A stretch of DNA of 54,256 nt from a virus. Its lineage: Duplodnaviria > Caudoviricetes. How positions within the stretch are numbered: position 1 is the first letter of the stretch; every line of letters begins with the position of its first letter. Below the pieces are notes generated by a model. The model made no database searches, was not told the origin of the DNA, and saw only the letters and a list, made by a program, of their open reading frames with translations. Location: the IMG/VR virus record IMGVR_UViG_3300033141_001736, positions 1-54,256 of that record. One strand, written 5' to 3'. The position numbers and the translations under genes were made by a program. Positions 15,659 through 40,268 of this stretch are shown in pieces.

Positions 15659-15671
15659 TGCGCCTCTCCTT

Positions 15672-16190
15672 TTATGGCTTCGCGCAGGTCACTTGATATG
15701 TTTCTTTTGTGACCTTTTTGATTTCGCAGCCAGGCGCAGGCCATGAGGAGCGGAATTTGACGACGACTTTCATGCCATCCCATTCACCGAGGCCCTCGTA
15801 CACGGCCCTGGGCGGCCGAGCGGTCTCCCAATCGCGCTCTGTCCACTCGGGCCTGGGATGTTTGAAAATCATCTTGAAGAAGCGCATCAAACCCGCCAGT
15901 ATTTCTTTGTCTTCTTCCTCTTTCCAGAGGTAGAAAGGCTCCGAGACAAGCTCGATTTGGATGTAGCGCGGATGGTCAGGCGGACTGATGCCATCATCTT
16001 CGCTCCAGCGGACGGAGCAACCAATAACGCGGTCAAAGCTAATCGGTAATTCTTCCGGCAAGGGCTCATGTTCCAGAGCCAATGCCACTCGATGTTTGAT
16101 GGCCCTGATCTGTTTCGCGTAGTTGATCGACGAACGGTACTGCTTTTCAGCATCATCGTATAGTTCTTGTGCATCTTCATTCCAGAACAT
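15672..16190 (-). CDS. hypothetical protein
   Basis: Start MFWNED after GAAAGGAGAGG. Confidence 0.7.
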   Translation of the reverse strand: MFWNEDAQELYDDAEKQYRSSINYAKQIRAIKHRVALALEHEPLPEELPISFDRVIGCSVRWSEDDGISPPDHPRYIQIELVSEPFYLWKEEEDKEILAGLMRFFKMIFKHPRPEWTERDWETARPPRAVYEGLGEWDGMKVVVKFRSSWPAPGCEIKKVTKETYQVTCAKP

Positions 16191-22514: not shown

Positions 22515-23583
22515 GAAAGAAATTCGTGTCGCGGTTGTTGGTGTCGGTAACTGTGCAAGTGCGCTCATTCAGGGGCTGGAGTTCTACAAGGCCGTTGAGG
22601 CAGATGGCGAGATACCCGGCGTGATGCACCCAAATCTCGCCGGTTACTTCATCCGCCACATAAAAGTCGTGGCGGCATTCGATGTGGCCGCAACGAAGGT
22701 CGGGTATCCCTTGGCCGTAGCTATACATGCGCCACCAAACAATGCCATGCAATTTACCGATGTCCAAAGCGATGTGATTGTCCAGCGAGGGCCCTTGCTC
22801 GATGGCTTCGGCAAGTATCTGAAGGAGCGAGTACCGGTTTCATCGTTGGCCTCCGTCAATGTGACCGACGCCTTGAAAAAGGCGAGGGCGGAAATTGTGG
22901 TCAATTTCTGTCCTGTCGGCTCAGCGCAAGCCACCCGGTATTATGCCCAAGCGGCCCTTGATGCAGGCTGCGCGTTTATCAATTGCATACCCGAATTCAT
23001 CGCCAGCGACGAGGTTTGGGCGGCAAAATTCGAAGAGCGAGGCCTGCCCGTCATTGGGGATGATGTGAAGTCGCAACTTGGTGCCACCATCATTCATCGG
23101 GTCTTGTCGCGATTGTTTGTAAATCGAGGTGTCTGGCTGGACAGAACTTATCAATTGAATTTCGGTGGAAATGGCGATTTCCTCAACATGCTGGAGCGTA
23201 GCCGTTTGACCAGCAAGAAGATTAGCAAAACCCAGTCGGTCAACAGCATGTTGCCAGAGCATCTCGGGGAAGGGGAGATACACATCGGGCCATCTGATTA
23301 CGTGCCATTTCTGAAGGACCAGAAGAATTGCTACATCAGAATGGAGGGGCGTAACTTTGGGCATCAGCCGGTGACAATCGAACTGAAACTGGAGGTGCAG
23401 GATTCTCCCAATAGCGCCGGTGTTGTGATTGATGCAATTCGTTGTGCTAAACTGGCTTTAGACCGCGGCCTTGCCGGTGTTCTGATTGGCCCAAGTGCTT
23501 ATTTCATGAAGTCGCCACCAGAGCAGATGCCGGATTGGAAGGCATTTCGTAAGGTCGAGGAATTCATAAACGAAAGGAGGTGA
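22501..23583 (+). CDS. ino1: myo-inositol-1-phosphate synthase
   Basis: VGVGNCAS, GDDVKSQLGATI, YQLNFGGNGDFLNM, SKKISKT, DSPNSAG, FMKSPP; full length and intact. Confidence 0.95.
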   Translation: MSMPEKEIRVAVVGVGNCASALIQGLEFYKAVEADGEIPGVMHPNLAGYFIRHIKVVAAFDVAATKVGYPLAVAIHAPPNNAMQFTDVQSDVIVQRGPLLDGFGKYLKERVPVSSLASVNVTDALKKARAEIVVNFCPVGSAQATRYYAQAALDAGCAFINCIPEFIASDEVWAAKFEERGLPVIGDDVKSQLGATIIHRVLSRLFVNRGVWLDRTYQLNFGGNGDFLNMLERSRLTSKKISKTQSVNSMLPEHLGEGEIHIGPSDYVPFLKDQKNCYIRMEGRNFGHQPVTIELKLEVQDSPNSAGVVIDAIRCAKLALDRGLAGVLIGPSAYFMKSPPEQMPDWKAFRKVEEFINERR

Positions 23584-23587
23584 TGAC

Positions 23588-23920
23588 TTGATAGAGACAA
23601 TTAAGAACGACGCGGGGCCAATCGCAATCCGCTACACGCCGGAATTTACTGCGATTTGCTCGGTCGGCAAGGCTCCCTTCTCTGGTGTTATGGAGATTGA
23701 GTACTTGGCCGACGACCTGCTCTTGGAGTTCCAGTCCTTTGAGATTTGGCTTCGGGAGCACGCCAACGCCGAGACAACTATCGAGGGCTTCTGCAAGATG
23801 GCTTTCGATGCGTTGACCGAGGCGCTTGGTGACATTCCTCTGGCCGTCACGGTGACGGCTACGACAACCGTACATGCGCCAGTTGAAGCGCGCATCGAAA
23901 GGAACTTTGAAAATGTCTAG
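23588..23920 (+). CDS. QueF-like tunnelling-fold protein
   Basis: PEFTAIC...P....IEY...LLE..S pattern; divergent from the canonical QueF motif. Confidence 0.7.
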   Translation: MIETIKNDAGPIAIRYTPEFTAICSVGKAPFSGVMEIEYLADDLLLEFQSFEIWLREHANAETTIEGFCKMAFDALTEALGDIPLAVTVTATTTVHAPVEARIERNFENV

Positions 23921-24605
23921 GAAAAGCAGGAAGAACCGATTGCCCATTGCTTGGGCCGTAGTGGCATTGGTAGGAGGTTATATCTTCTGCCAGGCTCTTG
24001 CCGATGTTGCGGCTACCAAGATTGTGCAGATTGGCAATGTCACGATGCCTGCGGGCACGTTCGTCTTCGCCATCACATTCACGCTGCGAGACATGCTTCA
24101 CAAGCGTTTAGGGCGTGAATGGGCGCGCGCTGCCATCGTCATGGCGGGCGTTTTGAACCTCATCATGGCGGGTTATCTGTACTGGATGTCTCGCCTGCCC
24201 GCTCCCCCGTTCTATGGCTTGGCCGAAGCCTGGTCTAGCATCTTCGCCTTCGTGCCTGCCATCGTCCTGGGCTCTATCATCGCGGAGGTGGTCAGCGAGT
24301 GGGTTGATACGGACGTCTATCATGCCGTGGCCCGATACTTCAAAGGCCCGTGGCAGTTCATGAGGGTCATCATCTCCAACCTCGTCTCTTTGCCGCTGGA
24401 TAGCCTTATCTTCGGTGCTTTGGCATTCGTGTATCTGCCCGTAATCTTTGGCGCTGAACCTATGCCATTCGCCGCCGCCATGCACATCGTTGGGGGCCAA
24501 ATCATCTTCAAGGCCATTGTGACAGCGGTTTCTCTTCCGGGCATTTACTTGGTCAAAGAAGAACATCTTCTGACGACCGCATCTTTGCAGGAGGCCGGTA
24601 ACTGA
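23913..24605 (+). CDS. yhhQ: queuosine precursor transporter (YhhQ/VUT family)
   Basis: Multi-TM; ATK..MPAGTF.F..TF..RD; R...SN.VS..LDS.IF..LAF. Confidence 0.9.
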   Translation: MSRKSRKNRLPIAWAVVALVGGYIFCQALADVAATKIVQIGNVTMPAGTFVFAITFTLRDMLHKRLGREWARAAIVMAGVLNLIMAGYLYWMSRLPAPPFYGLAEAWSSIFAFVPAIVLGSIIAEVVSEWVDTDVYHAVARYFKGPWQFMRVIISNLVSLPLDSLIFGALAFVYLPVIFGAEPMPFAAAMHIVGGQIIFKAIVTAVSLPGIYLVKEEHLLTTASLQEAGN

Positions 24606-24621: not shown

Positions 24622-25107
24622 ATGCCCAATAAGACTTGGCCGCAATACATTGAGACGGCCGAGCGCCGAGCGTTCGTACTGAACCTCAGAAAACGAGGCG
24701 TCAACTATCGTCAGATAGCGCAACTCGCCATTCAGCAATTCGGCGCAGAACGATTACCTGCTGGATGGGATGAGCGATATGCCTACAAAGACGTCAAACG
24801 CGAGCTGGCCCGCCTTCGCAAAGAGATAGCCGAGGATGCCGAGGCAGTTCGCACTCTGGAGTTGGAGCGATTAGATGCCCTGTATGTCGAGATGCACCGT
24901 CAGGCATTACAGGGCATCGTCGGCGCTGTCGATAGGTGTTTGAGAATCATGGAGAGGCGAGACAAACTGCTTGGCCTTTCCATGCCCGAAAAGCTAGAGG
25001 TGACTGGCGAGGGCGGCGCCCCATTGTTGAAAGAGGTCGTCATCATTCATAGCAGCGAGGAGCCGGACGGTGATGGAGCCGACGGTCGAGGCGACGGCAA
25101 GAGTTAA
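24622..25107 (+). CDS. terminase small subunit
   Basis: N-terminal HTH; LELERLD...RR.KLLGL..P.K.EVTG.GG.P; directly upstream of TerL. Confidence 0.75.
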   Translation: MPNKTWPQYIETAERRAFVLNLRKRGVNYRQIAQLAIQQFGAERLPAGWDERYAYKDVKRELARLRKEIAEDAEAVRTLELERLDALYVEMHRQALQGIVGAVDRCLRIMERRDKLLGLSMPEKLEVTGEGGAPLLKEVVIIHSSEEPDGDGADGRGDGKS

Positions 25108-26395
25108 GCCGCCGCCTTTTCTCCGGTTTGAGGCTGGCCGCGTATTCGTTTCGTACCATGCTGGTCAGGATGTCGCATGGTATAGCAAGCGGCGCTTCGT
25201 CTTTGTGTTCGCAGGAACGCAGGGAGGCAAAACCGTCTTTGGCCCCTGGTGGCTGCACCGCGAGATACTGCGCACTTCTGAGCCCAAGGGTGAGAACGAC
25301 TATCTCGCTGTCACATCCTCTTACGACCTGTTCAAACTGAAGATGCTGCCTGAGATGAGGCGGGTGTTTGAAAATATCCTGGGCATAGGCCGCTGGTGGG
25401 CGGGCCAGCGTGTGATTGAGTTGCGCGACCCTGACACCGGCAAGTTCTGGGCCAAGAAGGGCGACGATTTGATGTGGGGGCGCATCATTCTGCGCTCAAC
25501 GCAATCCGATGGCGGTCTGGAAGCCGCAACTGCAAAAGCCGCGTGGCTAGACGAGTGCGGCATGGATGAGTTCAAAGTGGACCATTGGGAGGCCGTCCGC
25601 CGCCGTCTCAGTCTCGCACGGGGCCGTGTATTGGGCACGACAACACTCTACAATCGCGGCTGGCTCAAAGCCCAAATCTACGACCCATGGACACAAGGCG
25701 ATGATGAGATTGATGTTGTCCAGTTCCCATCCTATCTGAACCCGGCATTCCCCAAGGAAGAGTACGATCGCATTGTCGCCCGGCTGCCTGCGTGGAAAGT
25801 CAACATGTTTTACCGGGGCGAGTTTGATGTGCCCGCGGGCCTCATCTACGACAACTGGGATGATGATAAACAAGTGATTGAGCCCTTCGCCATTCCGGAA
25901 GATTGGCCGGTGTATGGCTTCATCGACTTCGGTGGCGTGAACACGGCTGCTCTCCGCTGCGCTATGAACCCCGAGAACAAGACCTACTATCTCACGGATG
26001 AGTATTGGGAGGGCGGCAGGACTGCGGCCCAACATGCTGCCTACTTACGCAAATGGAACGCAAAGGTTTGGTACGGGGGCGCTCCGTCCGAGGAGCAATG
26101 GCGGGCTGAGTTTCGGGCGGCGGGCATTCCGGTCCAGAAGCCTGCGGTGTCTGATGTCGAAGTCGGCATAGACAGGGTGTATGGCGCTCATAGCGAAGGT
26201 AGGATATTCTGTTTCAAGCACTTGGTCCATTACCGCGACCAGAAGGGTATGTACAGGCGAGAACTCGACCGCAATGGTGAGCCGACGGAGAAGATACACA
26301 ACAAGAACGAGTTTCACTTCATGGATGCGGAACGGTACGGCATAGCGACATTGGAGCGAAGGCCGAAGAAGGCGAAGGTGGTGCGACTTGGCTAA
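25070..26395 (+). CDS. terL: terminase large subunit
   Basis: Walker A GTQGGKT, Walker B AWLDE, GTTT, nuclease IDFG and HFMDAERY. Confidence 0.93.
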   Translation: MMEPTVEATARVKPPPFLRFEAGRVFVSYHAGQDVAWYSKRRFVFVFAGTQGGKTVFGPWWLHREILRTSEPKGENDYLAVTSSYDLFKLKMLPEMRRVFENILGIGRWWAGQRVIELRDPDTGKFWAKKGDDLMWGRIILRSTQSDGGLEAATAKAAWLDECGMDEFKVDHWEAVRRRLSLARGRVLGTTTLYNRGWLKAQIYDPWTQGDDEIDVVQFPSYLNPAFPKEEYDRIVARLPAWKVNMFYRGEFDVPAGLIYDNWDDDKQVIEPFAIPEDWPVYGFIDFGGVNTAALRCAMNPENKTYYLTDEYWEGGRTAAQHAAYLRKWNAKVWYGGAPSEEQWRAEFRAAGIPVQKPAVSDVEVGIDRVYGAHSEGRIFCFKHLVHYRDQKGMYRRELDRNGEPTEKIHNKNEFHFMDAERYGIATLERRPKKAKVVRLG

Positions 26396-28127
26396 GAAGG
26401 ACGAACTCACAACAGTTGCAGAACAAAGCGTCCAGGAGCGCGGCAAGCGCAAGGATGTAATGGCAGCGCACTCGCTGCTGCTCATGCTCGCGCGGGCGGG
26501 CACACTTGTTGCTCCGTGGTGGTCGCGGCGGCGTGACAGCGACCTGAGAAAGTTTTGGAAAGAGAACGACTATCTTTCCGGTGCGGTGTATACATTCACC
26601 AGCCGCATCAAAACTGTCCCATGGCGCATTGTCCCCAAAGACATGACCGTAAAGGCTCATGTCAGACATGCCGACGAATTTGAGGCGCGGCTGAATGAGT
26701 TGAGCGATTTTGGCAAGGGCTGGATGACACTCATTTCAAAGTTTGTCGAAGACTTGCTCACTCAGGACAACGGAGCCTTTCTCGAAGTCATCGGCAAAGG
26801 CAAGCCTGACGGGCCTATCGTGGGGCCTGCAATGGGCCTTGCCCATCTCGATTCGTGGCGATGCCAACGGACGAGCAATCATGAATTCCCCGTTGTCTTC
26901 ACCGACACCGACGGCAAGCGGTACAAGCTACATTACACCCGCGTCATCATGGAGAGCCAGATGCCCTCGCCGCTGGCTCAAATGCATGATGTTGGCTTTT
27001 GCGCATTGAGCCGCTGCATCAACAATGCTCAATCGCTTCTCGACATACTCATCCACAAGCAAGAGAAGTTGGGTTCTCGGCCTCAGCGCGGCCTACTATT
27101 GACCGGCGGCGGGCTGGACCCCGATGACGTGCGCGAAGCGTTCCGCGTGAGCAATCAGGTCATGGATGACCAGTTACTCCAGCGGTACTCCAAGACGGTT
27201 GTCGTGGGCCATCAAGAATTGCCCGATGCGACCCTGCAACTCATTGAACTCTCTGGGCTGCCCGATGGCTTCAATGAGGAGCAAAGCACAACCTTGGGAA
27301 TGGCCGCAATCGCGCTGGCGTTTGGCATGGACCCGCGGGAGTTGTGGCCCGCAATCACGGGAGGCGTCACAAGGGCAGAGGCGCTCATCGCTCATATCAA
27401 GCAGCGGGGCAAGGGCTTGGGCGAGACATTGCTTGCAATCGAGCGCCATCTGGGTTCGAAGTTCCTCCCGCCGTACCTGACCTTCAGCTTCGACTTCCAA
27501 GATGATGAGCAGGATAGGCAAAAGGCAGAGATAAAGAACATCCGCGCCCGCAGGCAAGTGATGATGCTTGAAGTGGGAGCGATGGATAGCCGCACCTTGC
27601 GAGAGGAACAACTGGCCGACGGCGACCTGACAGAAGCCCAGTTTGAAAGGATGGAGTTGCGTGATGGCCGCCTGAAGGATGGCACTCCGGTACTGACACT
27701 TTTCTTCAACCCTGACTACTCAGACCTGCTAGACTTGGGGATTGATAATCCCTTGGACAAGCAATCGAATGATGCCACCGAAGTGAAGTGGGCAATCAAT
27801 GCTGCGAAGGCCACAATCCTCGAAAAGATGGCCGGAGCGAACCCTGGCGAGAAGAAGCGGCTGAACGAGGCGATGGCGGCTCTTGATAAACTGCTCGAAA
27901 TGTACGGCGCGGAGAAAGAGACAAGGGCTGAGACAGAGCGGCCCACGCCCGCCACGCCCGAAGAAGGCGAAGAAACAGAACCGGAAGAACTTGAAGAGGG
28001 CATCAAGCAGCCTCCAGGCGAATTCACGGAAGAGGACCTGGAAGTGAAGGCAAATAGCATCTATGCAAAGACAATGAAAGCGATAAGCGATGCCGCCAGG
28101 AGAATCAGAATTACACGCTCTTCGTAA
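26388..28127 (+). CDS. portal protein
   Basis: Follows TerL; DLL..DNGAF.EV, IALAFG.DP.EL; size. Confidence 0.85.
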   Translation: MAKKDELTTVAEQSVQERGKRKDVMAAHSLLLMLARAGTLVAPWWSRRRDSDLRKFWKENDYLSGAVYTFTSRIKTVPWRIVPKDMTVKAHVRHADEFEARLNELSDFGKGWMTLISKFVEDLLTQDNGAFLEVIGKGKPDGPIVGPAMGLAHLDSWRCQRTSNHEFPVVFTDTDGKRYKLHYTRVIMESQMPSPLAQMHDVGFCALSRCINNAQSLLDILIHKQEKLGSRPQRGLLLTGGGLDPDDVREAFRVSNQVMDDQLLQRYSKTVVVGHQELPDATLQLIELSGLPDGFNEEQSTTLGMAAIALAFGMDPRELWPAITGGVTRAEALIAHIKQRGKGLGETLLAIERHLGSKFLPPYLTFSFDFQDDEQDRQKAEIKNIRARRQVMMLEVGAMDSRTLREEQLADGDLTEAQFERMELRDGRLKDGTPVLTLFFNPDYSDLLDLGIDNPLDKQSNDATEVKWAINAAKATILEKMAGANPGEKKRLNEAMAALDKLLEMYGAEKETRAETERPTPATPEEGEETEPEELEEGIKQPPGEFTEEDLEVKANSIYAKTMKAISDAARRIRITRSS

Positions 28128-29782: not shown

Positions 29783-32700
29783 ATGCCTTGGAAGAAGGTG
29801 CGCAATCATCCGCGCTGTAAGCCGGGGCAGATTGCTGTCGTCCAAGTCCATGATGGCCGTCTTATGGGCTGCCACGATGATGAGGAAGCGGCGAATGCGC
29901 AGCTTGCCTATCTCAACATTCATGTCAAGGGCGGACCGGGTTCAGGGAATTGGGGCCACGCCGGGAGACCTGGACAGAGAGGAGGTAGTGCGCCGCGAAG
30001 TAGCGGTGCGGCGATGCCAATAAGTCATTCAGAGTACAAGCTGTCTGAGATGACGAAAGAGCAGAGAGAAAGACTCGGGAAGAAGTTGTATGCTGTCAGG
30101 GATGAATGGCGAGATAGCATCCAGCACATCGGCGATCTTGAAGAATACGAGAAAAGGCAGAAGGCTTGCGATTTACTTGGAAGTATTGCGCAAGACATCG
30201 ATGAGAGTTTCTTTGATAAAGGCAGCATAGTCCTTCGAAGGGATAAAGGGCGTGTAGTCGGCTTCATATATTGGGATGAATATGATATAGGCGGAAAGGG
30301 TGCTTACTGGCATCTTAGCGCCTTGGCTACTATTGAAAAAGGGCATGGCACGGCGCTATGCCTAGATTTTCTCCTAAAGGCTTCCCGTGAAGGCAAGGCT
30401 ATCGGAGGCACTTCCTTGTCCACCGCCTGGACGTTCTATCAAGGTTTGATGAAATCGGTTGGCCGTGAAGATTTGATAAAACAGGTGGCGCAAAGGAGCA
30501 AAACTGGAGTTAGGATTTCGATAAGTGCTGAGACATTGCGCGAGATAATGGAACCGTTCCAGGGTTTGGAAATCAAAGGTTTGAAAGAGGATGCCGAGAA
30601 ATTCCTGCGCGAATTCCGCAAGAAGCACGACGATGCGGGTGTTTGGTTCATACCTGACAAGGAAGAAAAAGGAGGCCCCGGAAGCGGTAACTGGGGACAC
30701 GCAGGCAGACCCGGACAACGAGGTGGAAGCGCGCCGCGAAGTAGCGGTGCGGCCATGCCCATCACTCATCAGGAATACGAACTGCGCAAGATGACAGAGG
30801 AGCAAAGAAAGAAATTTGGCGAGGAGTTAACGGACCTGACATACGAGTGGGAAGAAAAGAAAAACCAGATTCAAGACCCGAACGAAAAGACGAAGCGCGG
30901 CCAGGCCCTCGACCTATTGAATGTCGTTGCATTTGGCATCAAGCACGGTTATCGAGAGTCGGGCAACATCATCCTGCGTCGCGATAAAGGCAGCGTTGTT
31001 GGCTTCTTGATGTATGAGGAAAAGGGTCCTAACACTTGGCATCTTGCCGACTTAGCTACAATCGAGAAGGGCAATGGCACGCCGTTGATAATGGACTTTC
31101 TCCTGAAGGCAGGGAGGGAGCGCAAGACTGTTTCAGGCAACGCTTTAGGCAGCGCCTGGACGTTCTACGAGGGCCTGTTCAAAGCAACTGGCCGAGCGGA
31201 CTTGGCGAAGGAGGTCGCAAAGCACGAACCGTATGGCGTCCGACTTCGCATTCCCGGTGACGTGATGGCGGAGATAATGGAGCCGTTCCAGGGCTTGGAG
31301 GTCAAGGAACGCAAGAAGGAGGCGGAGAAGTTCTTGCGCGAGTTCCGCAATAAGCACGATGACATCGGCGTTTGGTTTCATCACGACCCAGACCAGATGG
31401 AAGTGCCTACAACGAAAGGAGGCCCAGGTTCAGGAAACTGGGGCCACGCGGGACGTCCGGGCCAACGTGGAGGCAGCGCGCCCAAGAGCGTCGTCATTGG
31501 CGAGCCGCAGAAGCTCACGAAGACGGCAATCTCGAAATACATCCAATGGTCCACTAGCCGCTACAATGAGTACCCGAAGAAATACGTCGTTGACACAGCA
31601 TACAGAATGCTCACGACCGGCAAAGACGAATATGGTGAGAGCAGGGCCGTGTTCTCTTCTGGAGGTTATACACCGTCCTCAGCCATGACCGGCAATGATT
31701 ACCTCGTTGATGGAGAGGAGAAATACATCGCTCGCGGAGTTGGGTGGGAGATTGATGATTTCGTTGAGCATGAGCGTGTGTATTTCACCGAGAAGGAAAT
31801 GGCAGACAAAGGCGGCCCTGGCTCTGGAAACTGGGGGCACGCGGGACGTCCAGGGCAGAGGGGAGGCAGTAGTCCCGGCGGAGGTTTGGGCGCAGTACCA
31901 TTCCAGCGTGTGACATACGAAGTTGAGGGCCTCGGTGAAGTGGTCAAACTGCCAAAGGAGTATTCATCGGATGCCCCCGCCGGTGTGGACGTGGTGAAGT
32001 TCTTCAAAAAGAACCCTGACGGAGCGGTCGTCTGGCAGGAGGACCAGGATTTCTTTGGCGAGAGCCGTCAAGCCTACTACATTGCTCATCGCAACGTCCG
32101 GCCGGGAGAGAAACCGTGGCGCATTACTGAGTTGGAGCGCACAGAGGGACCGGGCGGCAGCGTGCTCATGCCAAGAACGCATACGCAACATGGCAGTCCT
32201 AGAGAATTACTCCAAGCGATGAACAAGTTGGCCTCACGGGCGCAGGATAGCCAGATAATCACGGGCTTCAAGCCCATCGGTTTGACGAGCCCAGTTGAAT
32301 TGAAGGCGGTGATTGCACTCAGCGACAGTCTTGTGCTAGGATACGATGAGGAGAATGAGATGGAAGAAAAAGGCGGTCCAGGTTCTGGCAACTGGGGACA
32401 CGGAGGCCGTCCCGGAATGAGAGGCGGGAGCGCGCCAAAAGGTGGCGGCTTTGGAGGTGGCTATGGGAATCTGGGCTTGGCTCCGAGCGCGCCATCCGTC
32501 GTCGGTGTCAAGGCTCCTAAAACAGGGCGCAAAGTCTACGACTATTCAACCAACAAGCTCTGGCAACATGCCGGCGGCACAGACGGTTTGAAAAAGAAGT
32601 TCCCGCCGTCAAAGACGGATGCCGACAAGGTTTTCGACCACCTAACCGAGGTGTATGACCATGAAGCCGATTACTTGGTCGGCGCAGGTTTCGAGGAGGT

Positions 32701-34519
32701 TATCGAACCTGACTGGACGCGGGTCAGCGACCGTGTCTACAATACATGGGAGGCGAAGTCTCTCAAAGGGGACGATGGCTCCGATCTCAAGGAAGAACTT
32801 GGTGAGCGCGGGATGATGCTGCCAGCAGAAAAGGATGGGATTGTGGAGAAGTTTGGAGAAGCAGTGCAACCTGTTGAAATCACCCAATCGTTGGGCGGCG
32901 CTCAATCGTGGGATGAGTACGATGAGTATATGAAGCTAAGCGAACTGCAAGCAGCCAACGAAGCGGCCATTCGGGACTTCCGCTACATGGTTCAGAATAT
33001 CCTCGATGACGAGGAGTTAGACATGGCCGAGAAAAGCAAGCGCGTTGCGGCTCTGGCAGATGGGTTGCCGGACCGCGTTGAGAAGATTGTGACACAGAGT
33101 AAGGAGGCAGACTTATCGGAGGAAAGCATCATCGCAAAACTGGTCGGAATGGTCACACGTAAAGCAAAGCCTACTCGGATGGTGGATGGCAAGCCGCACA
33201 CCGCGGATGATTTCGCCTATGTGCCCGACCCCGAAACGCCATCCACATGGAAGCTCCCCATCTTCGATGAAGACCACATCTCTATGGCTATCACGGCGCT
33301 GCAACCCAGCGGCTTCCGAGGCCAAAAGGTTGACATACCAGCCGATGATAAGTCCAAAGTCTTGAGCCGCATATCAGCCGCAATCAATAAGATTGCCGAC
33401 GACGATACAAAGAACAGGCTGAAGCGGCGGCTCGAGGCGATTAGGAAAGAAAAGTCCTTCTACGTCTTCAAGGACAACAGCGGCTCATGGCGCTGGTTCG
33501 GATGGGTGAGCAACAAGTTCCGAGACCGAGACTATGGCAGGCATCCAGAAGGCGAGGTGCTAGCCGAAGCTGCCCATAAGGAATACATCGCCTGGGTAGA
33601 TGCAAATCCCCAGGAACGGATGCCGAGGTTACTTGCTTGGCACATTCCTCAGACGGCGACGGCCCACAAGGCCGATTGGGTGGAATACTCGGACGGCTTC
33701 TTGATGGCGAGCGGACCGCTCACGCCCGAAGAAGCCGAACGCATCAAAGCCGTCGAAGAGGAATATCGCCTGGGCATGAGCCACGGCTTCATTGCCTTGG
33801 ACAAAGACGAGAAAGAGGGTATCATCGAGAAGTACCGGACCTTCGAGATGACGTATCTTCCAATCGACGCGGCAGCGAACCCTTGGACGGACTTCCTGAC
33901 CGTCAGTAAGGAGGTAGAGCAGATGGGATTGTCCGAAAAGAAGCGAGAGTTCCTCAGCAAACTCATGGGCGATGAGTTCGTAGAGGAAATCGAGCAGGAA
34001 ACGGAAGCCAAAACAGCGGCCTTGGTAGCCGCAGGGGTGGACTACAAAGAGGGCGAGGAACCCGAGCCCGAGGCAGCCACCGATGAGGAAACGACCACGG
34101 AAGAGGAGGCCGAAGAGCCCGCAGCCGAGCAAGAGAAGGCGGACGAGGAGGAGCCGGAAGCTCCAGACCCGGTTGCCGAATTGCGCTCAGAGCTTGGAGA
34201 GGCTATGAAGGCCATTGGCGAGCAGTTGCACGCGCTCAACGAACGCATTGACAATCTCCAAGTCGAGAACAAACAGGTCCAAGAAGCCATCGAAGAGGTG
34301 GTTGGGCAAACGCCGAAGGTGAGCCTGAAGGACCTGTTCATGGGGTCGGTTATCGGCAAGGAGGAGGCCAAGGTTGACGGGCGCGTGTCTCTAGCGAAGG
34401 ATGGGCCAGAGGAAACTAAGCCGGAAGAGGGCATCGGCGCTTTCCCGGTTCCCATCCTGGGCCAAATCAAACAGCGCAACATGGAGTTCCAAATGGGTGT
34501 AAAGCCGGAGGTTGAATAG
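29783..34519 (+). CDS. polyprotein: repeat-delimited cargo modules, prohead protease and acidic scaffold
   Basis: Five K-GGPGSGNWGH.GRPG.RGGS repeats; C-terminal LLAWH / GMSHGF / FEMTYLP..AANP protease-like motifs then acidic coiled coil; directly before the capsid gene. Confidence 0.8.
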   Translation: MPWKKVRNHPRCKPGQIAVVQVHDGRLMGCHDDEEAANAQLAYLNIHVKGGPGSGNWGHAGRPGQRGGSAPRSSGAAMPISHSEYKLSEMTKEQRERLGKKLYAVRDEWRDSIQHIGDLEEYEKRQKACDLLGSIAQDIDESFFDKGSIVLRRDKGRVVGFIYWDEYDIGGKGAYWHLSALATIEKGHGTALCLDFLLKASREGKAIGGTSLSTAWTFYQGLMKSVGREDLIKQVAQRSKTGVRISISAETLREIMEPFQGLEIKGLKEDAEKFLREFRKKHDDAGVWFIPDKEEKGGPGSGNWGHAGRPGQRGGSAPRSSGAAMPITHQEYELRKMTEEQRKKFGEELTDLTYEWEEKKNQIQDPNEKTKRGQALDLLNVVAFGIKHGYRESGNIILRRDKGSVVGFLMYEEKGPNTWHLADLATIEKGNGTPLIMDFLLKAGRERKTVSGNALGSAWTFYEGLFKATGRADLAKEVAKHEPYGVRLRIPGDVMAEIMEPFQGLEVKERKKEAEKFLREFRNKHDDIGVWFHHDPDQMEVPTTKGGPGSGNWGHAGRPGQRGGSAPKSVVIGEPQKLTKTAISKYIQWSTSRYNEYPKKYVVDTAYRMLTTGKDEYGESRAVFSSGGYTPSSAMTGNDYLVDGEEKYIARGVGWEIDDFVEHERVYFTEKEMADKGGPGSGNWGHAGRPGQRGGSSPGGGLGAVPFQRVTYEVEGLGEVVKLPKEYSSDAPAGVDVVKFFKKNPDGAVVWQEDQDFFGESRQAYYIAHRNVRPGEKPWRITELERTEGPGGSVLMPRTHTQHGSPRELLQAMNKLASRAQDSQIITGFKPIGLTSPVELKAVIALSDSLVLGYDEENEMEEKGGPGSGNWGHGGRPGMRGGSAPKGGGFGGGYGNLGLAPSAPSVVGVKAPKTGRKVYDYSTNKLWQHAGGTDGLKKKFPPSKTDADKVFDHLTEVYDHEADYLVGAGFEEVIEPDWTRVSDRVYNTWEAKSLKGDDGSDLKEELGERGMMLPAEKDGIVEKFGEAVQPVEITQSLGGAQSWDEYDEYMKLSELQAANEAAIRDFRYMVQNILDDEELDMAEKSKRVAALADGLPDRVEKIVTQSKEADLSEESIIAKLVGMVTRKAKPTRMVDGKPHTADDFAYVPDPETPSTWKLPIFDEDHISMAITALQPSGFRGQKVDIPADDKSKVLSRISAAINKIADDDTKNRLKRRLEAIRKEKSFYVFKDNSGSWRWFGWVSNKFRDRDYGRHPEGEVLAEAAHKEYIAWVDANPQERMPRLLAWHIPQTATAHKADWVEYSDGFLMASGPLTPEEAERIKAVEEEYRLGMSHGFIALDKDEKEGIIEKYRTFEMTYLPIDAAANPWTDFLTVSKEVEQMGLSEKKREFLSKLMGDEFVEEIEQETEAKTAALVAAGVDYKEGEEPEPEAATDEETTTEEEAEEPAAEQEKADEEEPEAPDPVAELRSELGEAMKAIGEQLHALNERIDNLQVENKQVQEAIEEVVGQTPKVSLKDLFMGSVIGKEEAKVDGRVSLAKDGPEETKPEEGIGAFPVPILGQIKQRNMEFQMGVKPEVE

Positions 34520-35931
34520 TGGAAACTCAAATCTCGCCTGAAATCATCAAACAACTAGCCGCTGCGTTCCAGGCTCTGGCCGAACAAAAGTCAGCGGACG
34601 CAGGACCGACCGGCCCTGCATCTCTGTTCGGTAGCGGCGGCATCTTCTCCACACCCGGAGTAGAGCCTGACGTAATCACGGCCTATGTCCGTCCGCATGG
34701 GCTTATCACCGAACTGCCGCGAATGCCGTCCACCTATGAAAATCCTCGCTTCGCTACCATCACCGGCTTCACGGACACAGTTGGCTCGGAGCCTGCTCAG
34801 CCGTGCGATGACGCCCCGATGGGCTACATGAAGGGCTGCAATCTCACCGCTGCGTTCGGACGCCTCTCTCGGTCAACGCCGACGATTGAGTTCGACAAGG
34901 TGATGCTGCGATTGCACCGAGGTATCAGTACGGACCTTGCCCTGCGCGGGCGGGTGCTTGGCCTCGGTGACATGGCCCCCGCGGGGCTCAGCGAAGCAGA
35001 CATCCTCAATATCTACACAATGGCCGAGATGGTAACGGTCGGCGTGAATATTGAGCGCGAGTTGTCCAGGATGATTTGGCAGGGCACGCCTGCCAATAAC
35101 AACGTCGGCGGCGGCTACAAGGAATGCCCCGGCCTCGACAATCAAATCGCGACGGGCCAAGTGGATGCCGATACTGAGACTGCTTGCGAGGCGCTTGACA
35201 GCGATGTCAAGAACTTCAACAACAACCCTGTGACCGGTTCCTCACCGAGCATCGTCGAATACATGAGCATGATGGAGTTCTACCTGCGCTACAACGCGGA
35301 GCGCATGGGCCTCATGCCAGTCGAGTGGGTCATCGCAATGACCGAGGGCCTGTGGTTCGAGTTGACCGAAATCTGGCCCTGCCAGTACAACACGAACCGC
35401 TGCGCGTCAGCGGTCGTGGGCGACCAGTCCCGCACCGTCCTCGATGGTGGCGAGATGCGGTCCCAGATTGATGCGATGCGGACGGGCAAGTACATCGACA
35501 TCAACGGGCATCGTTATCGTGTCATCACCGATAGCGGCATCCTGGAAGAGAGCATCGGCTACGGCACGTTCCGCTCATCCATCTACTTCATCCCGCTCAC
35601 CATCACGGGTGGGTTCCAGGTCACCTACCTGGAGTACGTGGACTATCGGGCCGGCGCACGCGATACCGCTCTCTTGCGCGGCAATGAAACCTTCTGGACC
35701 GACCGCGGCATGTACTCTTGGGCCGCCGAATTCCAGAAGTGGTGCTACAAGTTGTCCTGCAAGATTGAGCCTCGCATTGTGCTGCGAACACCGCAGCTTG
35801 CCGGGCGCATCGACGATGTGCTCTACGAGCCGCTCCAGCACGTGCGCGAGCCGTATCCTGACAGCCCGTACTTCAAGGATGGCGGCGTGAGCCTCCGAGG
35901 CGGTGAAAGCCTGCACGCGGTCTGGCTCTAA
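34519..35931 (+). CDS. major capsid protein
   Basis: Position after the scaffold; IWQG...GLD HK97-fold pattern; GGAGG RBS; followed by a hairpin. Confidence 0.8.
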   Translation: METQISPEIIKQLAAAFQALAEQKSADAGPTGPASLFGSGGIFSTPGVEPDVITAYVRPHGLITELPRMPSTYENPRFATITGFTDTVGSEPAQPCDDAPMGYMKGCNLTAAFGRLSRSTPTIEFDKVMLRLHRGISTDLALRGRVLGLGDMAPAGLSEADILNIYTMAEMVTVGVNIERELSRMIWQGTPANNNVGGGYKECPGLDNQIATGQVDADTETACEALDSDVKNFNNNPVTGSSPSIVEYMSMMEFYLRYNAERMGLMPVEWVIAMTEGLWFELTEIWPCQYNTNRCASAVVGDQSRTVLDGGEMRSQIDAMRTGKYIDINGHRYRVITDSGILEESIGYGTFRSSIYFIPLTITGGFQVTYLEYVDYRAGARDTALLRGNETFWTDRGMYSWAAEFQKWCYKLSCKIEPRIVLRTPQLAGRIDDVLYEPLQHVREPYPDSPYFKDGGVSLRGGESLHAVWL

Positions 35932-36014: not shown

Positions 36015-36728
36015 ATGGGTTATCGCGTATTCGTCACAACCTCAGACAAGTATCTGCTTGCTCTGAGGCCTTTTGCTTGGCTTTTCAACAAGTACTGGTC
36101 CCCCGAAGTCGAGGTCATTGTGGGCGGCTTCACGCCGCCTTCATTTTCGCTGCCGTCGAACTTTCATTTCATGGTCCTGGGCGAGCAAGAGAAGTATCCG
36201 GTGGATAGGTGGTCGGATGCTTTTATCCGCATGGTGGAGTACCTGGGCGATGAAATATTCGCCTTCATGCTGGAGGACTACTGGATAACAGAGCCTGTGG
36301 ACCTGCGCGCGGTTCAGATGCTATACGATTACATGCGCCAGTTTCGCTATGTCATCCGCATGGACCTGACAACGGACCGTATGTTCGCGGGCGGGGCGCA
36401 GCCTTACGGCAAGGTCGAGGACATTGAATTGGTGAAGTCGTCGCCGGGTTCGCCGTATCATATGAGCCTGATGACTGCGTTTTGGCGCACAGAGCATCTA
36501 ATGAAAATCTTGGTCCCGCATGAGAGCCCTTGGGACATAGAAATCAAAGGGACAACAAGGCTCTCTGCTTTTGGCGATACGATGCTGGTACTCGGCACAA
36601 AAGTTGCGCCCGTGAAGCATTGCCTCGCCTTCCGCGCAGACCAGCCCGGCAAGCTGCTTCTCGATGGCTTGAAGGCAGAGGATATTGATGAGATGAGAAA
36701 CCTCGGCCTACTGGAGGGATTAGAATGA
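36015..36728 (+). CDS. putative GT-A glycosyltransferase
   Basis: TSDKY...FNKYW, FMLEDYW metal motif, ESPW.IE; cluster context. Confidence 0.6.
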   Translation: MGYRVFVTTSDKYLLALRPFAWLFNKYWSPEVEVIVGGFTPPSFSLPSNFHFMVLGEQEKYPVDRWSDAFIRMVEYLGDEIFAFMLEDYWITEPVDLRAVQMLYDYMRQFRYVIRMDLTTDRMFAGGAQPYGKVEDIELVKSSPGSPYHMSLMTAFWRTEHLMKILVPHESPWDIEIKGTTRLSAFGDTMLVLGTKVAPVKHCLAFRADQPGKLLLDGLKAEDIDEMRNLGLLEGLE

Positions 36729-37948
36729 TAAAACAGAAAGGCAAGGCGGGGCGAAGGGCCATTCGGCGTGTCGGCACCGGCGACTTCAATGCTTCCCTGC
36801 GCATGGTCACTCTTGTGAATAAGGTGCTAGCATCGGGCCGCCTTTCCTATGGGCCGATGTCTAAGAGGTTCGAAAGAGAGTTCGCACGGCTCCACGGCTG
36901 CCGTTATGGCATTCTCTCAAACAGCGGCACTTCCAGTCTCCATGTTGCTCTCCAGGCCATGAAAGAGATACACGGCTGGCGGGATGGAGATGAAGTTATT
37001 GTGCCTGCTTCGACGTTCGTGGCAACCGTCAATGTCGTCCTGCACAATCGCCTGAAGCCTGTTCTCGCGGACATCACGGTTCACGACTACGGCCTGAACC
37101 CGCGGGAGGTCGTCAAGAAACTCACGAACCGAACACGGGCCATCATCCCCGTTCATTTGTATGGGCAGCCTTGCAACATGCGCGCATTGATGGCGATTGC
37201 CGACAGGTACAGTTTGAAAATCATCGAGGATAGTTGCGAGTGCATGTTCGCAGCCCATCACGGAATGCCCGTTGGCTCCATGGGCGACATCGGATGCTTC
37301 AGCCTATACAATGCCCATATCATCACCGCGGGCGTCGGCGGCATTGCAACGACCAGCAATCCGGATTACGCCAAGGTGATGAGGTCGCTGGTCAATCACG
37401 GCCTTGATATTCAGGAGTTGAACACAGATGAAAATTTCTCGCCCCGGCCCGTTACTGGCCGCTCTTTTCGTTTCAGCCTTTGTGGTCACAGTTATCGCAT
37501 CACGGAATTGGAAGCTGCGCTGGCGTTGGCGCAGTTAGAGGATTGGCAGCAAATCATCAAGACACGCCGCAGGAATGCGCGACACCTACGCACTGGCTTG
37601 CGCAACATCGAACGCGAGATAGGTGTGAGCCTGTGGTATCTACCAAGCGCGCGCCAGGGCAACACGCATTCGTGGATGATGTTCCCCATTCTGCTCCGAC
37701 GGGATGTGCTCGCCAAAGAGAAATTCATTCGATGCCTCAATGCTCTGGGTATCGAGACACGAGACATGATGCCCATCGTTTCGCAGCCCATTTACAAGGA
37801 TTGGATTAGGCCGGAAGATTATCCCGTTTCGAAGTATGTAGACGAGAATGGCTTCTATATCGGCTGCCATCCCGGACTGACGCCGGACGACATCGAGTAC
37901 GTTTTGCAGGTCTTCCGCGATTACATTTACGAGACGTGCCGTGTTTGA
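36725..37948 (+). CDS. DegT/DnrJ/EryC1/StrS PLP enzyme, His-type (ColD/E1-like dehydratase)
   Basis: NSGTSSL, TFVAT, PVHLYG, IEDSCE, FSLYNAHIIT with His at the usual Lys position. Confidence 0.9.
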   Translation: MIKQKGKAGRRAIRRVGTGDFNASLRMVTLVNKVLASGRLSYGPMSKRFEREFARLHGCRYGILSNSGTSSLHVALQAMKEIHGWRDGDEVIVPASTFVATVNVVLHNRLKPVLADITVHDYGLNPREVVKKLTNRTRAIIPVHLYGQPCNMRALMAIADRYSLKIIEDSCECMFAAHHGMPVGSMGDIGCFSLYNAHIITAGVGGIATTSNPDYAKVMRSLVNHGLDIQELNTDENFSPRPVTGRSFRFSLCGHSYRITELEAALALAQLEDWQQIIKTRRRNARHLRTGLRNIEREIGVSLWYLPSARQGNTHSWMMFPILLRRDVLAKEKFIRCLNALGIETRDMMPIVSQPIYKDWIRPEDYPVSKYVDENGFYIGCHPGLTPDDIEYVLQVFRDYIYETCRV

Positions 37949-38672
37949 GAACGAATACTGGACGCGCTTTGAAAATCTCCCTCCCATTGAGGGTTCCGGC
38001 TATTGGGCCAACCGCCGCAAAAACATGCGGGCGCATATGGTCAAAGAGCCGCCAGATAAGCCGTGGACATGGAGTACCGTCATAGCAACAATGTATGTCG
38101 GCCACGGCAACAAAAAGGTCATCAAAGCCGCCAAAGAAATCCCTCCCGAATGGCTCGGCAGGCTCGAAGGCGAAGAGGATGCTCCCAACCTCGTTTGCCA
38201 AGCATATCACCTGTGGCGCTGGCTACGTCGTCAATCGTCCCTGCGCTTGGAGGACCTGAGTACCATTGTGGAGTTCGGTGGCGGCTATGGGGCGATGGTT
38301 GTCGTTTGCTCTGCTCTTGGCTTCCGCGGCGATTACTACATCTACGACTATCCCGAAATGGCATTGATGCAGGAGTATCACCTGGGCACCCGCGAGATTG
38401 AATGTAGTGTCCATTGGGAGCCGCATCCCAGAAAGCCCGACCTGTTCATCTCGTGCAATGGCATCGACGAGGCGCCGCTTGATGAGCGAGAAGCATTCTT
38501 GGGGACAATCAGGCCATCGCAGTTCTTGATTGTCGCTCAACACATGTGGCTGGACATCAATAACTACAATTACTTCCACGACTGGGCGCAAAGACAATTC
38601 AGCAAGTGGCGTGTCCTATGGGCCATTGAGAAAGACGGCAACGCAATCTATATCATGTCGATAGGGCGATAG
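37941..38672 (+). CDS. putative sugar O-methyltransferase
   Basis: SAM motif IVEFGGGYG, Y.IYD.PE...Q..HL. Confidence 0.75.
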   Translation: MFENEYWTRFENLPPIEGSGYWANRRKNMRAHMVKEPPDKPWTWSTVIATMYVGHGNKKVIKAAKEIPPEWLGRLEGEEDAPNLVCQAYHLWRWLRRQSSLRLEDLSTIVEFGGGYGAMVVVCSALGFRGDYYIYDYPEMALMQEYHLGTREIECSVHWEPHPRKPDLFISCNGIDEAPLDEREAFLGTIRPSQFLIVAQHMWLDINNYNYFHDWAQRQFSKWRVLWAIEKDGNAIYIMSIGR

Positions 38673-38673
38673 T

Positions 38674-39444
38674 ATGCAGGAACGACAGAATGTAGTTGTC
38701 GTTGGATACCCGAGAAGCGGAAACACATGGCTTGCCCGATTGCTCGGCAACGCTCTCAATTCCCCCGTGACCGGCTTGAAAAAAGCAATGCCTCTTGCTA
38801 ATGAGGGCAAAGACCGTCCCGGTCCTTACTGGGTGAGACAGTTACATCTTCATCCTCATGCAGGCCCCTGCGAGCACAAGGTTGCGCTTGTCAACGCGGG
38901 AACGTTTTGTCTTGATAATTGGCGCGATGAGCGGATAGCTTTCATCGTCCGCGACCCTCGCGATGTCGCCGTGAGCGCCGCGAGTTACTGGCACATGCCG
39001 CTTGCCAAGACCGTTCGGCGCATGAAGGATGCGAAGTTTCCGATGGGCTTTGGGCCATGGTCGAAGTTCGTCCGCGACTGGCTCCACGTCTACAAAAACA
39101 ATGTGGACCACCGCATGATAGTTGTGAAGTATGAGGCCCTGAACGAGGATACAGTTGCCATCCTGGGAGCGGCCCTTGCGATGCTCGACCTTGAACCCGT
39201 AAAGCCTTTGGAACAGGTTGCGGCGGAAGAAAGCATCGAGGCCAAACGCAAGCAGGTTATGAAAGATGGCGACCAGCGGCCTTACGGCAAGGACATACAG
39301 TTGCACCATCTCCGGAAAGGCATCGTGGGCGACTGGAAGAACTGGGACTGGTCCAGCATCGGCCCGTTTGCGGACGAGACGTTTGGCCCCACGATGGACC
39401 TGCTCGGCTACGAAAGAGAGGAGAACTGGTGGTCATCCCGATAG
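38674..39444 (+). CDS. PAPS-dependent sulfotransferase
   Basis: YPRSGNTW (5'-PSB), RDPRDVAVS (3'-PB), RKG.VGDWKN. Confidence 0.92.
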   Translation: MQERQNVVVVGYPRSGNTWLARLLGNALNSPVTGLKKAMPLANEGKDRPGPYWVRQLHLHPHAGPCEHKVALVNAGTFCLDNWRDERIAFIVRDPRDVAVSAASYWHMPLAKTVRRMKDAKFPMGFGPWSKFVRDWLHVYKNNVDHRMIVVKYEALNEDTVAILGAALAMLDLEPVKPLEQVAAEESIEAKRKQVMKDGDQRPYGKDIQLHHLRKGIVGDWKNWDWSSIGPFADETFGPTMDLLGYEREENWWSSR

Positions 39445-40268
39445 ATGATGCCTTATTCGGACATGCAAAAGCCATCGGTTTCTCGGGTGAGAATGCGGGC
39501 CGCAGCCCAACCTACTTCGAGTGGCTGCGGGAAGACCGTGAGCATCAAGACATGAAGGTCTTTACAGACGCTTCGCTGAAGCGTGCGGCAGAAGACCCAA
39601 CGCCGCGCAAGGTTGCTTTGATACTAGAGCCTTACTGCCTGCATCCTGAGCCCTATGAAACGGCAGCGGCCATGATTGAACACTTTGACGCTATCTTCAC
39701 GCACCACACGGCTTGGGCGAACAGAGGCAAGCCGTGGCGCTGGTATCCCTTTGGCGGCTCATGGATAAAGGATTGGCCCCAGAGCGTCCCCAAGACGCGT
39801 AAGGTGAGCATACTTGTTTCGAAGAAGCGGGCCACAGACGGCCACCGGCTCCGCCACAAAGTAGCAACGACCTTCAATCATATCTTGGATGTCTACGGCG
39901 AGCCTTATACGCAATGGCTAAGTAACAAGCGGCAGGCGCTGGAGCCTTATGCGTTCTCGGTTGTGATAGAGAATTGTGCCGCTGAAGGTTTCTTTACTGA
40001 GAAGTTACTTGACTGTTTCGCTCTGAGGACGGTTCCTATCTACTGGGGCGCGCCGGACATTCACCGCTACTTCGACCCTGATGGCATCATCACTTTCCAT
40101 TCGATCTATGATTTGGCGAGTATCCTTTCGCGTCTAACGCCTGACGAGTATACAAAAAGGCTCTCTGCAATCGAAAGCAATGCGCATCGGGCTATTATCT
40201 ATCGGACGCCGGAAGACTGGCTATATGAGCGTTATCCCGAATTCTTCGCCACCGGAGGGCTTAGATGA
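39429..40268 (+). CDS. GT10 (alpha-1,3-fucosyltransferase-like) glycosyltransferase
   Basis: Y.FSVVIEN...FFTEKLLDCF...TVPIYWG. Confidence 0.85.
   Translation: MVIPIDDALFGHAKAIGFSGENAGRSPTYFEWLREDREHQDMKVFTDASLKRAAEDPTPRKVALILEPYCLHPEPYETAAAMIEHFDAIFTHHTAWANRGKPWRWYPFGGSWIKDWPQSVPKTRKVSILVSKKRATDGHRLRHKVATTFNHILDVYGEPYTQWLSNKRQALEPYAFSVVIENCAAEGFFTEKLLDCFALRTVPIYWGAPDIHRYFDPDGIITFHSIYDLASILSRLTPDEYTKRLSAIESNAHRAIIYRTPEDWLYERYPEFFATGGLR

Follow-up and report, generated by a model that had tools for sequence, protein, structure and literature searches.

The window analysed here is a stretch of 54,256 nucleotides (nt) from a virus of the Caudoviricetes (IMG/VR record IMGVR_UViG_3300033141_001736, positions 1 to 54,256), and the subject of this report is one of its genes, at 29783..34519 on the plus strand, which encodes a polyprotein of 1578 amino acids (aa) in a single uninterrupted frame with no in-frame stop. 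The polyprotein carries five copies of a Gly-rich peptide of 20 residues, referred to below as the tag, each directly preceded by Lys, and its C-terminal part is read as a prohead protease-scaffold protein. The explanation that we favour, with a probability of roughly 0.6, is that this is a prohead protease-scaffold bearing five tagged cargo modules, which would be cut after Lys in the procapsid, the cargo leaving with the DNA. Cleavage, packaging, ejection and the effector roles of the modules are what we infer from the architecture of the protein, the folds of its parts, the distribution of the tag and the co-variation of the residue before it with the head protease.

Architecture of the polyprotein

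The tag, GGPGSGNWGH[AG]GRPG[QM]RGGS, was located by script in the translated open reading frame (ORF) at aa 50, 297, 546, 677 and 864, with Lys immediately N-terminal to all five copies, and a six-frame scan of the whole window gave no sixth copy. The peptide is identical at 20 of 20 residues in four copies and at 18 of 20 in the fifth, and in the codon alignment of the five copies nearly all third positions differ, including switches between TCN and AGY for Ser and between AGA and CGT for Arg; the repeat is thus kept as a peptide and does not reflect a recent DNA duplication. The motif positions, the preceding Lys and the synonymous codons given in the original prediction, which had been made from the letters of the window, were all reproduced by the script and the DNA alignment. 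Spans from tag to tag are 247, 249, 131 and 187 aa, followed by about 150 aa until the conserved family core. The five cargo modules that had been proposed stand as far as the spans of modules 1 to 4 are concerned, and the fifth divides into a cargo-like half and a half that belongs to the conserved core of the family.

The C-terminal 560 aa are read, from a predicted structure, as a prohead protease-scaffold protein of the HK97/T4-gp21/herpesvirus fold. An AlphaFold model of this carrier was built on an alignment of 105 family members (alignment A1) and had a predicted local distance difference test (pLDDT) score of 81. The top match of the model in a Foldseek search of PDB was T4 gp21 (5jbl, probability 1.0), and the VIA comparison aligned 133 residues of it with gp21 (Z 9.1, root-mean-square deviation 3.2), the next 35 rows all being herpesvirus proteases (Z 7.9-5.6). 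Among the predicted viral structures of BFVD there were 112 matches at E<=1e-3 (best E 3.5e-8), and most of those with names were labelled 'prohead protease', 'HK97 family prohead protease' or 'phage head maturation protease'. The structure comparison thus places the domain with the assemblin-like (clan SH) fold. Three residues, H1287, S1333 and E1355, are invariant in alignment A1, and the His and Ser are putative catalytic residues. Downstream of the protease, Lys1422 (K317 of alignment A1) is conserved in at least 90% of members; past it lie 49 disordered residues, 22 of them acidic, and then a helix of 47 residues with a tail, which is the shape of a scaffold. The segment FAYVPD..PSTWKLP, the protease-fold domain and a coiled, acidic scaffold follow one another in the order originally described, and the prohead-protease-like nature of the C-terminal part is borne out by the fold match, the scaffold and the position directly before a capsid-like gene.

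The carrier family is large and lies outside curated sequence models. Relatives of the C-terminal 473 aa numbered 3009 at E<=1e-3 and 399 at E<=1e-30 among 1.84 billion cluster representatives, and are mostly 400-700 aa long. None of the 35 family members scanned matched the Pfam protease models (S78, S77, S21), and a profile of the protease family found no match among PDB sequences. The polyprotein, eight pieces of it and its neighbours gave no Pfam match and two PHROGs with no assigned function: phrog_19463, which covers aa 1118-1218, and phrog_24776, on a neighbouring ORF of 214 aa. A tblastn search of the whole polyprotein against 50,697 phage records reached 29 records, only within aa 1022-1222, a stretch that includes the FAYVPD domain, and found no match to tags or modules; structure comparison of the carrier model identified no fold for this domain. 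The FAYVPD..W.LP domain is also present in proteins without the protease domain of the window; in Salmonella phage 9NA it is found in gp38 (L001 5779-7038), whose gene comes shortly before those for the decoration and major head proteins. A 538-aa ORF (L200 15054-16667) in a record of the E-type, in which the tag follows Glu, aligns with the family profile in its flanking parts alone.

The sequence AAGGAGGT lies 7 nt before an in-frame ATG at Met1381, and initiation there would give a nested scaffold protein of 198 aa. Its 8-mer occurs four times in the window, twice before start codons, one of which is that of the ORF at 23588. A nested scaffold start at Met1381 could exist.

Modules 1 and 2 are paralogues (58% identical) and model as a GNAT fold. 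The model was made from an alignment of the two sequences and has a mean pLDDT of 66.6 overall; in module 1 the core scores 80-95 and residues 1-29, which hold the tag, are below 50 and disordered. All listed Foldseek matches of module 1 in PDB were GNAT acetyltransferases (best 4u9w, E 3.6e-4), and the ESM Atlas gave the same lead, weakly (0.89-0.90). On our reading of the sequence, a G-x-G (EKGHGT / EKGNGT) stands where the CoA pyrophosphate loop is expected; neither module has a Pfam match. Structure prediction, named with the original prediction as a way of checking the modules, thus gave a recognisable fold for the first two; for the other modules 'effector' is a presumptive label. Homologues of modules 1 and 4 were not found among shorter proteins by a word-based search, which may overlook distant ones, and module 4 had no usable ESM Atlas match. 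The front of the fifth module (aa 884-1014) had no family match by Pfam or in the local set. Apparent module homologies seen earlier vanished when the tags were removed.

The array itself is a rare insertion between leader and core. Among the nearest family representatives, 147 of 149 are without a tag; of the other two, P0049 (691 aa) has one degenerate tag and P0002 (880 aa, 40% identical to the polyprotein over aa 870-1422) has two, and Lys precedes these as well. For the leader of 49 aa, phmmer found a similar N-terminus in P0081, a member without tags (E 7e-5), and P0145 and P0169 open with the same pattern; the rear of the fifth module (aa ~1015-1105) has counterparts near the N-terminus of 34 members of the family. 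Modules 1 to 4, with tags removed, had no match among 195 proteins and the set of viral loci, P0002 and P0049 included. It is from the untagged relatives, the shared leader and the unmatched modules that the insertion is deduced, and close relatives so appear to carry other cargo or none. Comparing relatives, as had been suggested with the original prediction, gives a variable number of modules (0, 1, 2 or 5 tags) with variable content, and an architecture that is not invariant. In one relative, G012, the protease-scaffold is untagged (370 aa) and a tag preceded by Lys (K-type) stands at residue 490 of a portal-like ORF of 770 aa; judged from these sequences, the head-assembly protein that bears the cargo differs between related phages.

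The tag and the residue before it in other phages

A search with the whole protein found 46 other proteins of 880-2443 aa, mostly matching by the tag alone, and 44 of these carry 1-5 tags by a stricter pattern. Pfam domains on tagged proteins included portals (PF04860, PF06381, PF06074), MuF, a capsid domain, ADP-ribosyltransferases, NUDIX, 2H phosphoesterase, glutamine amidase and others; the occurrence of similar Gly-rich motifs in MuF and polyvalent proteins, given with the original prediction, was thus recovered on search, in portal proteins too, and the downstream domains catalogued. In IMG/VR, at least 174 stretches matched a degenerate DNA pattern, with 196 distinct in-frame tags on 106 contigs among the matches listed and no more than 9 per contig. 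Glycine occupies every third position of the tag (5, 8, 11, 14, 17), and Ser, Asn, Trp/Phe and His are fixed, a regularity partly imposed by the search pattern. A P-loop reading of GGPGSGN was rejected, as it has no Lys-Ser/Thr and no predicted structure, and an AT-hook reading of GRPG was weakened by Arg12, which is Val or Ile in 20 of 98 tags. A tblastn search with a 32-aa tag query, with the low-complexity filter on, gave six matches, all at E>=4.

Several contexts of the tag are recorded as observations. In L222 (G019, 10592-15760) four tandem paralogous genes encode proteins of 382-406 aa, and each opens with some 24 residues of basic leader that run up to ..RR.D|GG and the tag. Viral contigs L093-L098 and L158-L164 hold 9 and 7 K-type tags, respectively, over 8-10 kb on one strand, and these would be very long cargo arrays. 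Bacterial genome contigs contain true tags across many phyla, and one was found in a Methanothrix metagenome-assembled genome (MAG); the pattern is less specific there, and the scan covered 77 in-frame motif matches, four of them spurious G/N-rich repeats of L241, so that no census is claimed. Isolates with a genome match to the DNA pattern, and so with a candidate tag, include Paenibacillus favisporus DSM 17253, Jutongia huaianensis NSJ-37, Duganella callida DN04 and several Paraburkholderia strains. The in-frame tags of L286 and L290 (the Methanothrix MAG, with Phe before the tag, and a Saccharibacteria MAG, with Asn) may stem from binning errors. The portal of Faecalibacterium phage FP_Brigit (L178) is 51% identical to a portal fusion of the D-type, in which Asp precedes the tag, and the match stops just before the first tag of the fusion; the 19.9-kb FP_Brigit locus has no tag, though a DUF2213 'head maturation protease' is encoded. 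From this comparison of sequences, tag and cargo look like an optional add-on.

The tag might be a flexible linker that is never cut, with the polyprotein working intact as an enlarged scaffold, an inner body or a tethered multi-enzyme. The tag is rich in Gly and Pro and is modelled as disordered, and in a Pfam scan of 49 tag-bearing ORF pieces it always stood between domains in the fusion proteins, directly after a DUF2213 domain in two cases; N4 virion RNA polymerase is cited, in the text available, as a polyvalent protein packaged unprocessed (PMC5512222). In 26 of 47 tag-bearing ORFs from thirty 20-kb contexts, however, the first tag comes within the first 54 residues, right after a short leader, where there is nothing to link, and a linker would not hold Asn, Trp/Phe, His and Arg invariant under synonymous codon change. 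Nor would it account for the residue before GG, which stays the same within a phage and follows the type of protease, as described next, and we regard an uncleaved linker as unlikely.

The residue before GG was compared in a set of 45 proteins with 98 tags from the protein database. It has an entropy of 1.9 bits (K 41, D 39, also N, E, L, Y/F and R) and agrees in 99% of pairs within a protein against 32% between proteins, whereas other variable positions of the tag agree in only 42-69% of within-protein pairs. In the independent IMG/VR set, 38 of 46 multi-tag contigs among the matches listed are uniform at this residue, including all K and D contigs. All 10 D-type records carried DUF2213 (PF09979) and none of the 10 K-type records did (two-sided exact test ~1e-5, the records not being independent); the D-type DUF2213 ORFs are 419-544 aa long and 21-42% identical to one another, and it is in the FP_Brigit record that such a protein is labelled 'head maturation protease'. 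No paper on a DUF2213 activity was found, and hhalign gave no similarity between the protease family of the window and a DUF2213 alignment, so the same fold is not claimed for the two. Of the K-type records, G001 combines Peptidase_S78 and a PF04860 portal, the protease family of the window is present in G012, and HK97-type capsids are found in G003 and G014; the single R-type record examined (G033) has S78, PF04860 and PF05065. All eight distinct E-type sites, from four sources, read [LI]xE|GG, and one of three E-type records has Peptidase_S77 adjoining a Gp23-type capsid gene. A Mu-like protease was found in one of five L-type records. At P3 the L, A and M classes have R/K in common, and at P4 they have L/I.

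The HK97 protease cuts after Lys. As far as the text available to us goes, T4 gp21 cleaves I/LxE motifs after their Glu (PMC12991175, a 2026 preprint), and the proteases of SPN3US, phiKZ and T4 all cleave after Glu (PMC5694885, PMC10052503). Uniform within a phage, different between phages and tracking the type of protease, the preceding residue is like the P1 of a protease, and the residues before GG, as far as can be told from the sequences, behave like positions P4-P1 for the head protease of the phage concerned. The Lys before the tag had been put forward as a cut-site residue; it does behave like a P1, and the E class matches the I/LxE of gp21. A complex prediction of the protease domain with a 61-aa tag peptide scored 0.01, gave no answer and was used neither way.

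Features and neighbouring genes of the window

The features of the polyprotein and of the adjoining head genes are listed in Table 1. The capsid-like ORF (470 aa) is 23-26% identical to the ORFs at the same position in relatives L203 and L204 and had no Pfam or PDB sequence match. The terminase-like ORF (441 aa) is 44% identical to a G012 (L204) ORF carrying Terminase_6C, and the portal-like ORF (579 aa) is 28% identical to the front of the tagged portal-like ORF of G012.

Table 1. Features of the polyprotein gene and adjoining head genes, in positions of the window.
Feature	Position	Strand	Basis or remark
Whole polyprotein	29783..34519	+	1578 aa, open throughout
N-terminal leader of 49 aa ending in Lys49	29783..29929	+	resembles N-terminus of P0081, phmmer E 7e-5
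Tag copy 1, aa 50-69	29930..29989	+	motif; model pLDDT <50
Module 1, predicted GNAT fold	29990..30670	+	AF2 core pLDDT 80-95 and Foldseek
Tag copy 2, aa 297-316	30671..30730	+	motif
Module 2, paralogue of module 1	30731..31417	+	58% identity
Tag copy 3, aa 546-565	31418..31477	+	motif
Module 3, ~110 aa	31478..31810	+	no Pfam match; no tagless match in local set
Tag copy 4, aa 677-696	31811..31870	+	motif
Module 4, ~167 aa	31871..32371	+	no Pfam, ESM Atlas, shorter-homologue or local match
Tag copy 5, aa 864-883, GH-G-G and G-M-R variants	32372..32431	+	motif
Variable Gly-rich front of fifth module, aa 884-1014	32432..32824	+	loose alignment, P0002 only
Conserved N-terminal helical part of family core	32825..33133	+	phmmer, 34 members, E 6e-16 to 6e-3
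FAYVPD..PSTWKLP domain	33134..33448	+	phrog_19463 E 3.8e-13; model pLDDT >90
Predicted prohead-protease fold domain	33449..34021	+	structure matches; invariant His/Ser/Glu
His1287; Ser1333; Glu1355	33641-33643; 33779-33781; 33845-33847	+	invariant, 105 sequences
AAGGAGGT and in-frame ATG (Met1381), candidate internal start	33908..33925	+	inferred
Lys1422 junction and acidic disordered linker	34022..34168	+	22 D+E per 49 aa; pLDDT <50
Scaffold-like long helix and C-terminal tail	34169..34516	+	model helix 358-404; kept across family
Capsid-like gene, GTG start	34519..35931	+	start overlaps polyprotein stop (TAGTG)
Large terminase-like gene	25070-26395	+	upstream of polyprotein
Portal-like gene	26388-28127	+	upstream of polyprotein

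Between the capsid-like and tail genes (36015-43222) lies a glycosylation cluster with a DegT-type aminotransferase, a sulfotransferase, a GT10-like fucosyltransferase and a 985-aa protein combining GT4, two GT2 and helix-hairpin-helix parts; glycosyltransferases are found at the same place in G012 and G011, and the cluster may point to modification of virion or host-surface glycans. Just upstream of the terminase (21648-24605) are genes for QueC-like, myo-inositol-1-phosphate synthase and Vut_1-type transporter proteins, which may relate to 7-deazaguanine or other nucleotide or DNA modification. The minus strand at 5378-14648, opposite in direction to the structural genes, encodes a PD-(D/E)XK nuclease, a ParB-like protein, DUF932 and an ERF recombinase.

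Proposed processing and relation to known systems

In the proposed explanation, the array of five modules, each headed by a disordered tag, would have been inserted between the short leader and the protease-scaffold core. The C-terminal scaffold part would take the full polyprotein into the procapsid with the capsid protein of the neighbouring gene, and the protease would cut after each Lys preceding GG. This would release two GNAT-like proteins and three others inside the head, each starting GGPGSGNWGH..., while scaffold and linker fragments are removed, and the cargo would leave the head with the DNA at infection. Full-length copies would be few if the nested start at Met1381 supplies scaffold alone. 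As a general device, the tag would join portal, MuF or DUF2213 carriers to enzymes or follow a short stand-alone leader, with the residues before GG matched to the head protease of each phage.

Several results weigh against this explanation. Pfam at E<=10 gave nothing for any part of the polyprotein, aa 1223-1400 included, and modules 3-5 have no recognisable function. Five modules amount to ~106 kDa, and if each copy of the scaffold bore them, a capsid that holds 54 kb would be crowded, so that few full-length copies (e.g. through the nested scaffold start) or loss of cargo would be needed. The pairing of preceding residue and protease is incomplete: no protease was recognised in 8 of 10 K-type records, where the searches comprised an S78 profile on G001-G005 and alignment A1 on G011-G015 only. 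A local A1 search of selected ORFs from the K-type 20-kb stretches found no further protease, and a relaxed Pfam scan of candidate protease ORFs from E-, K- and F-type records gave only a weak Peptidase_S78 match (E 0.0016), in the G001 ORF noted above. Weak DUF2213 matches in three of five L-type records mean that the pairing is not one-to-one, and the tag-bearing records are phylogenetically non-independent. Eight of the 46 multi-tag contigs, among the matches listed, are mixed before GG; one of these is explained by a tag cut at the edge of the locus, and the others combine H/N, M/A, L/A, Q/H or Y/Q/M. The eight tags of G035 (L217), spread over five adjoining ORFs, are preceded by Y, H, Q, Y, M, D, Q and Y. 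Several tags of G035 share an upstream stretch like H-I-I-P-V.

Mixed residues of this kind fit the absence of a strict protease, and the tag, including the residue before it, could be an autonomous signal for docking, DNA binding, ejection threading or self-cleavage with which the prohead protease has nothing to do. Its N-x-x-H spacing recalls NPTH autocleavage sites; the Gly at every third position and the invariant Ser, Asn and His, partly imposed by the pattern, would suit such a signal; and conservation of 20 residues across differing protease, portal and capsid families suggests a common partner or chemistry. An autonomous signal gives no reason, however, for phage-specific preceding residues or for I/LxE in the T4-like class, the Val or Ile at Arg12 is contrary to an AT-hook-like DNA contact, and the tag is without predicted structure; we consider this explanation rather improbable. 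Under the cleavage explanation, too, 20 conserved residues exceed the needs of a cleavage site, so the tag must have a further role, and a role after cleavage, e.g. as a flexible leader threading out of the head, is only an idea.

It also tells against head-based processing that some tag genes (G004, G005, G009, G010) lie among replication and recombination genes, outside the head modules. This would suit a polyprotein that is an expression device, its modules freed in the infected cytoplasm in the manner of RNA viruses and acting late without being packaged; in the producer cell, host or phage molecules could be the targets of GNAT enzymes. As a rule, however, prohead proteases with this fold are active only inside procapsids, and the carriers of the tag (portal, MuF, protease-scaffold, capsid) are proteins of virion assembly. 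Position away from the head genes is also no bar to packaging: in the text available to us, T4 internal proteins are encoded off the head genes and yet packaged through an N-terminal targeting sequence (PMC5694885, PMC3012670). An expression device is, in our judgement, quite unlikely.

Processing within the head would have its closest parallels in systems already described. T4 internal proteins and other head proteins with a capsid targeting sequence, which gp21 cuts, and the ejection proteins of phiKZ and SPN3US, which are cut at AXE, resemble the tagged modules in having a short N-terminal leader or propeptide that ends in a protease-specific site (PMC5694885, PMC10052503, in the text available). 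T4 cargo is likewise diverse, packaged and ejected, and the E-class sites found here read [LI]xE as reported for gp21 in the accessible part of PMC12991175. Unlike in T4, several cargoes are here strung on one polypeptide fused to the protease-scaffold, an invariant Gly-rich tag of 20 residues follows each site and would stay on the cargo, and one and the same tag goes with four types of protease at least.

Polyvalent proteins and MuF toxins are multi-domain fusions of the head module for which the available text predicts packaging and injection (Iyer et al. 2017, PMC5512222; Jamet et al. 2017, PMC5576092). Many tagged proteins share their hallmark domains (ART-PolyVal, InPase, 2H phosphoesterase, NUDIX, MuF, portal), and the polyprotein likewise combines several unrelated domains between portal-like and capsid-like genes. 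Unlike polyvalent proteins, it has no Pfam match to MuF, portal, zincin peptidase, ART or methylase-helicase; unlike MuF toxins, which join an N-terminal MuF domain (PF04233) to a C-terminal toxin with an immunity gene, it lacks PF04233 and is followed by a capsid-like gene. For processing, the polyvalent paper proposes, in the part available, zincin metallopeptidases (PMC5512222). A term search of the available text of PMC5512222 and PMC5576092 found no mention of a Gly-rich junction, and no paper spelling out the tag was found, the sole match being an influenza paper that is unrelated, in a search that did not extend to subscription journals and supplements, so that a prior description is possible.

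In lambda C/Nu3 and herpesvirus UL26/UL26.5, protease-scaffold fusions have nested scaffold genes. The polyprotein resembles these in its predicted fold, conserved and putatively catalytic His and Ser, position before the capsid gene, C-terminal scaffold and possible internal start. It differs from proteases of the HK97 family in being unmatched by Pfam S78, S77 and S21, in its extra FAYVPD domain and in bearing an N-terminal cargo array of 1000 residues. Encapsulin cargo peptides are usually C-terminal, bind the shell and are uncleaved; they are alike in being short conserved peptides on unrelated enzymes, which they direct into an HK97-fold shell, though binding of the shell by the tag would be conjecture. 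Of the readings considered, that of the original prediction is supported best, and most likely the Lys-directed protease of the polyprotein itself cuts the modules apart inside the procapsid. The polyprotein is read as a variant of capsid-targeted internal proteins and polyvalent proteins, and the wider result is the tag, with its putative protease-matched cut site, that very diverse phages share. The broader suggestion, put forward tentatively as something that may well prove otherwise, is that the tag, as GG(P/K)GSGN(W/F/H)GHxG(R/V/I)PGxxGGS with preceding residues that suit the head protease of each phage, labels cargo almost universally in tailed phages and prophages. Whatever stands downstream of it would be loaded into the capsid, freed at maturation and delivered with the DNA, and the flexible tag kept at the N-terminus would serve as threading leader on the way out through portal and tail.

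Phage proteins that travel with the DNA, such as anti-defence, host-takeover and toxin proteins, are hard to recognise, and targeting signals are known in few model phages. A tag that can be found in sequence, together with a protease-matched site, would give a rule for recognising such cargo in metagenomes, and it would explain the disassembly of polyvalent proteins and portal/MuF fusions, many of which are without the zincin peptidases of the published proposal. The tag would also be a portable handle for loading proteins into HK97-fold capsids. The polyprotein of the window, with five putative cargoes on the protease-scaffold itself, is an extreme and clean example. If the tag is indeed a cargo label, the injected proteome of uncultured phages would be readable from sequence, and foreign proteins could be loaded into capsids.

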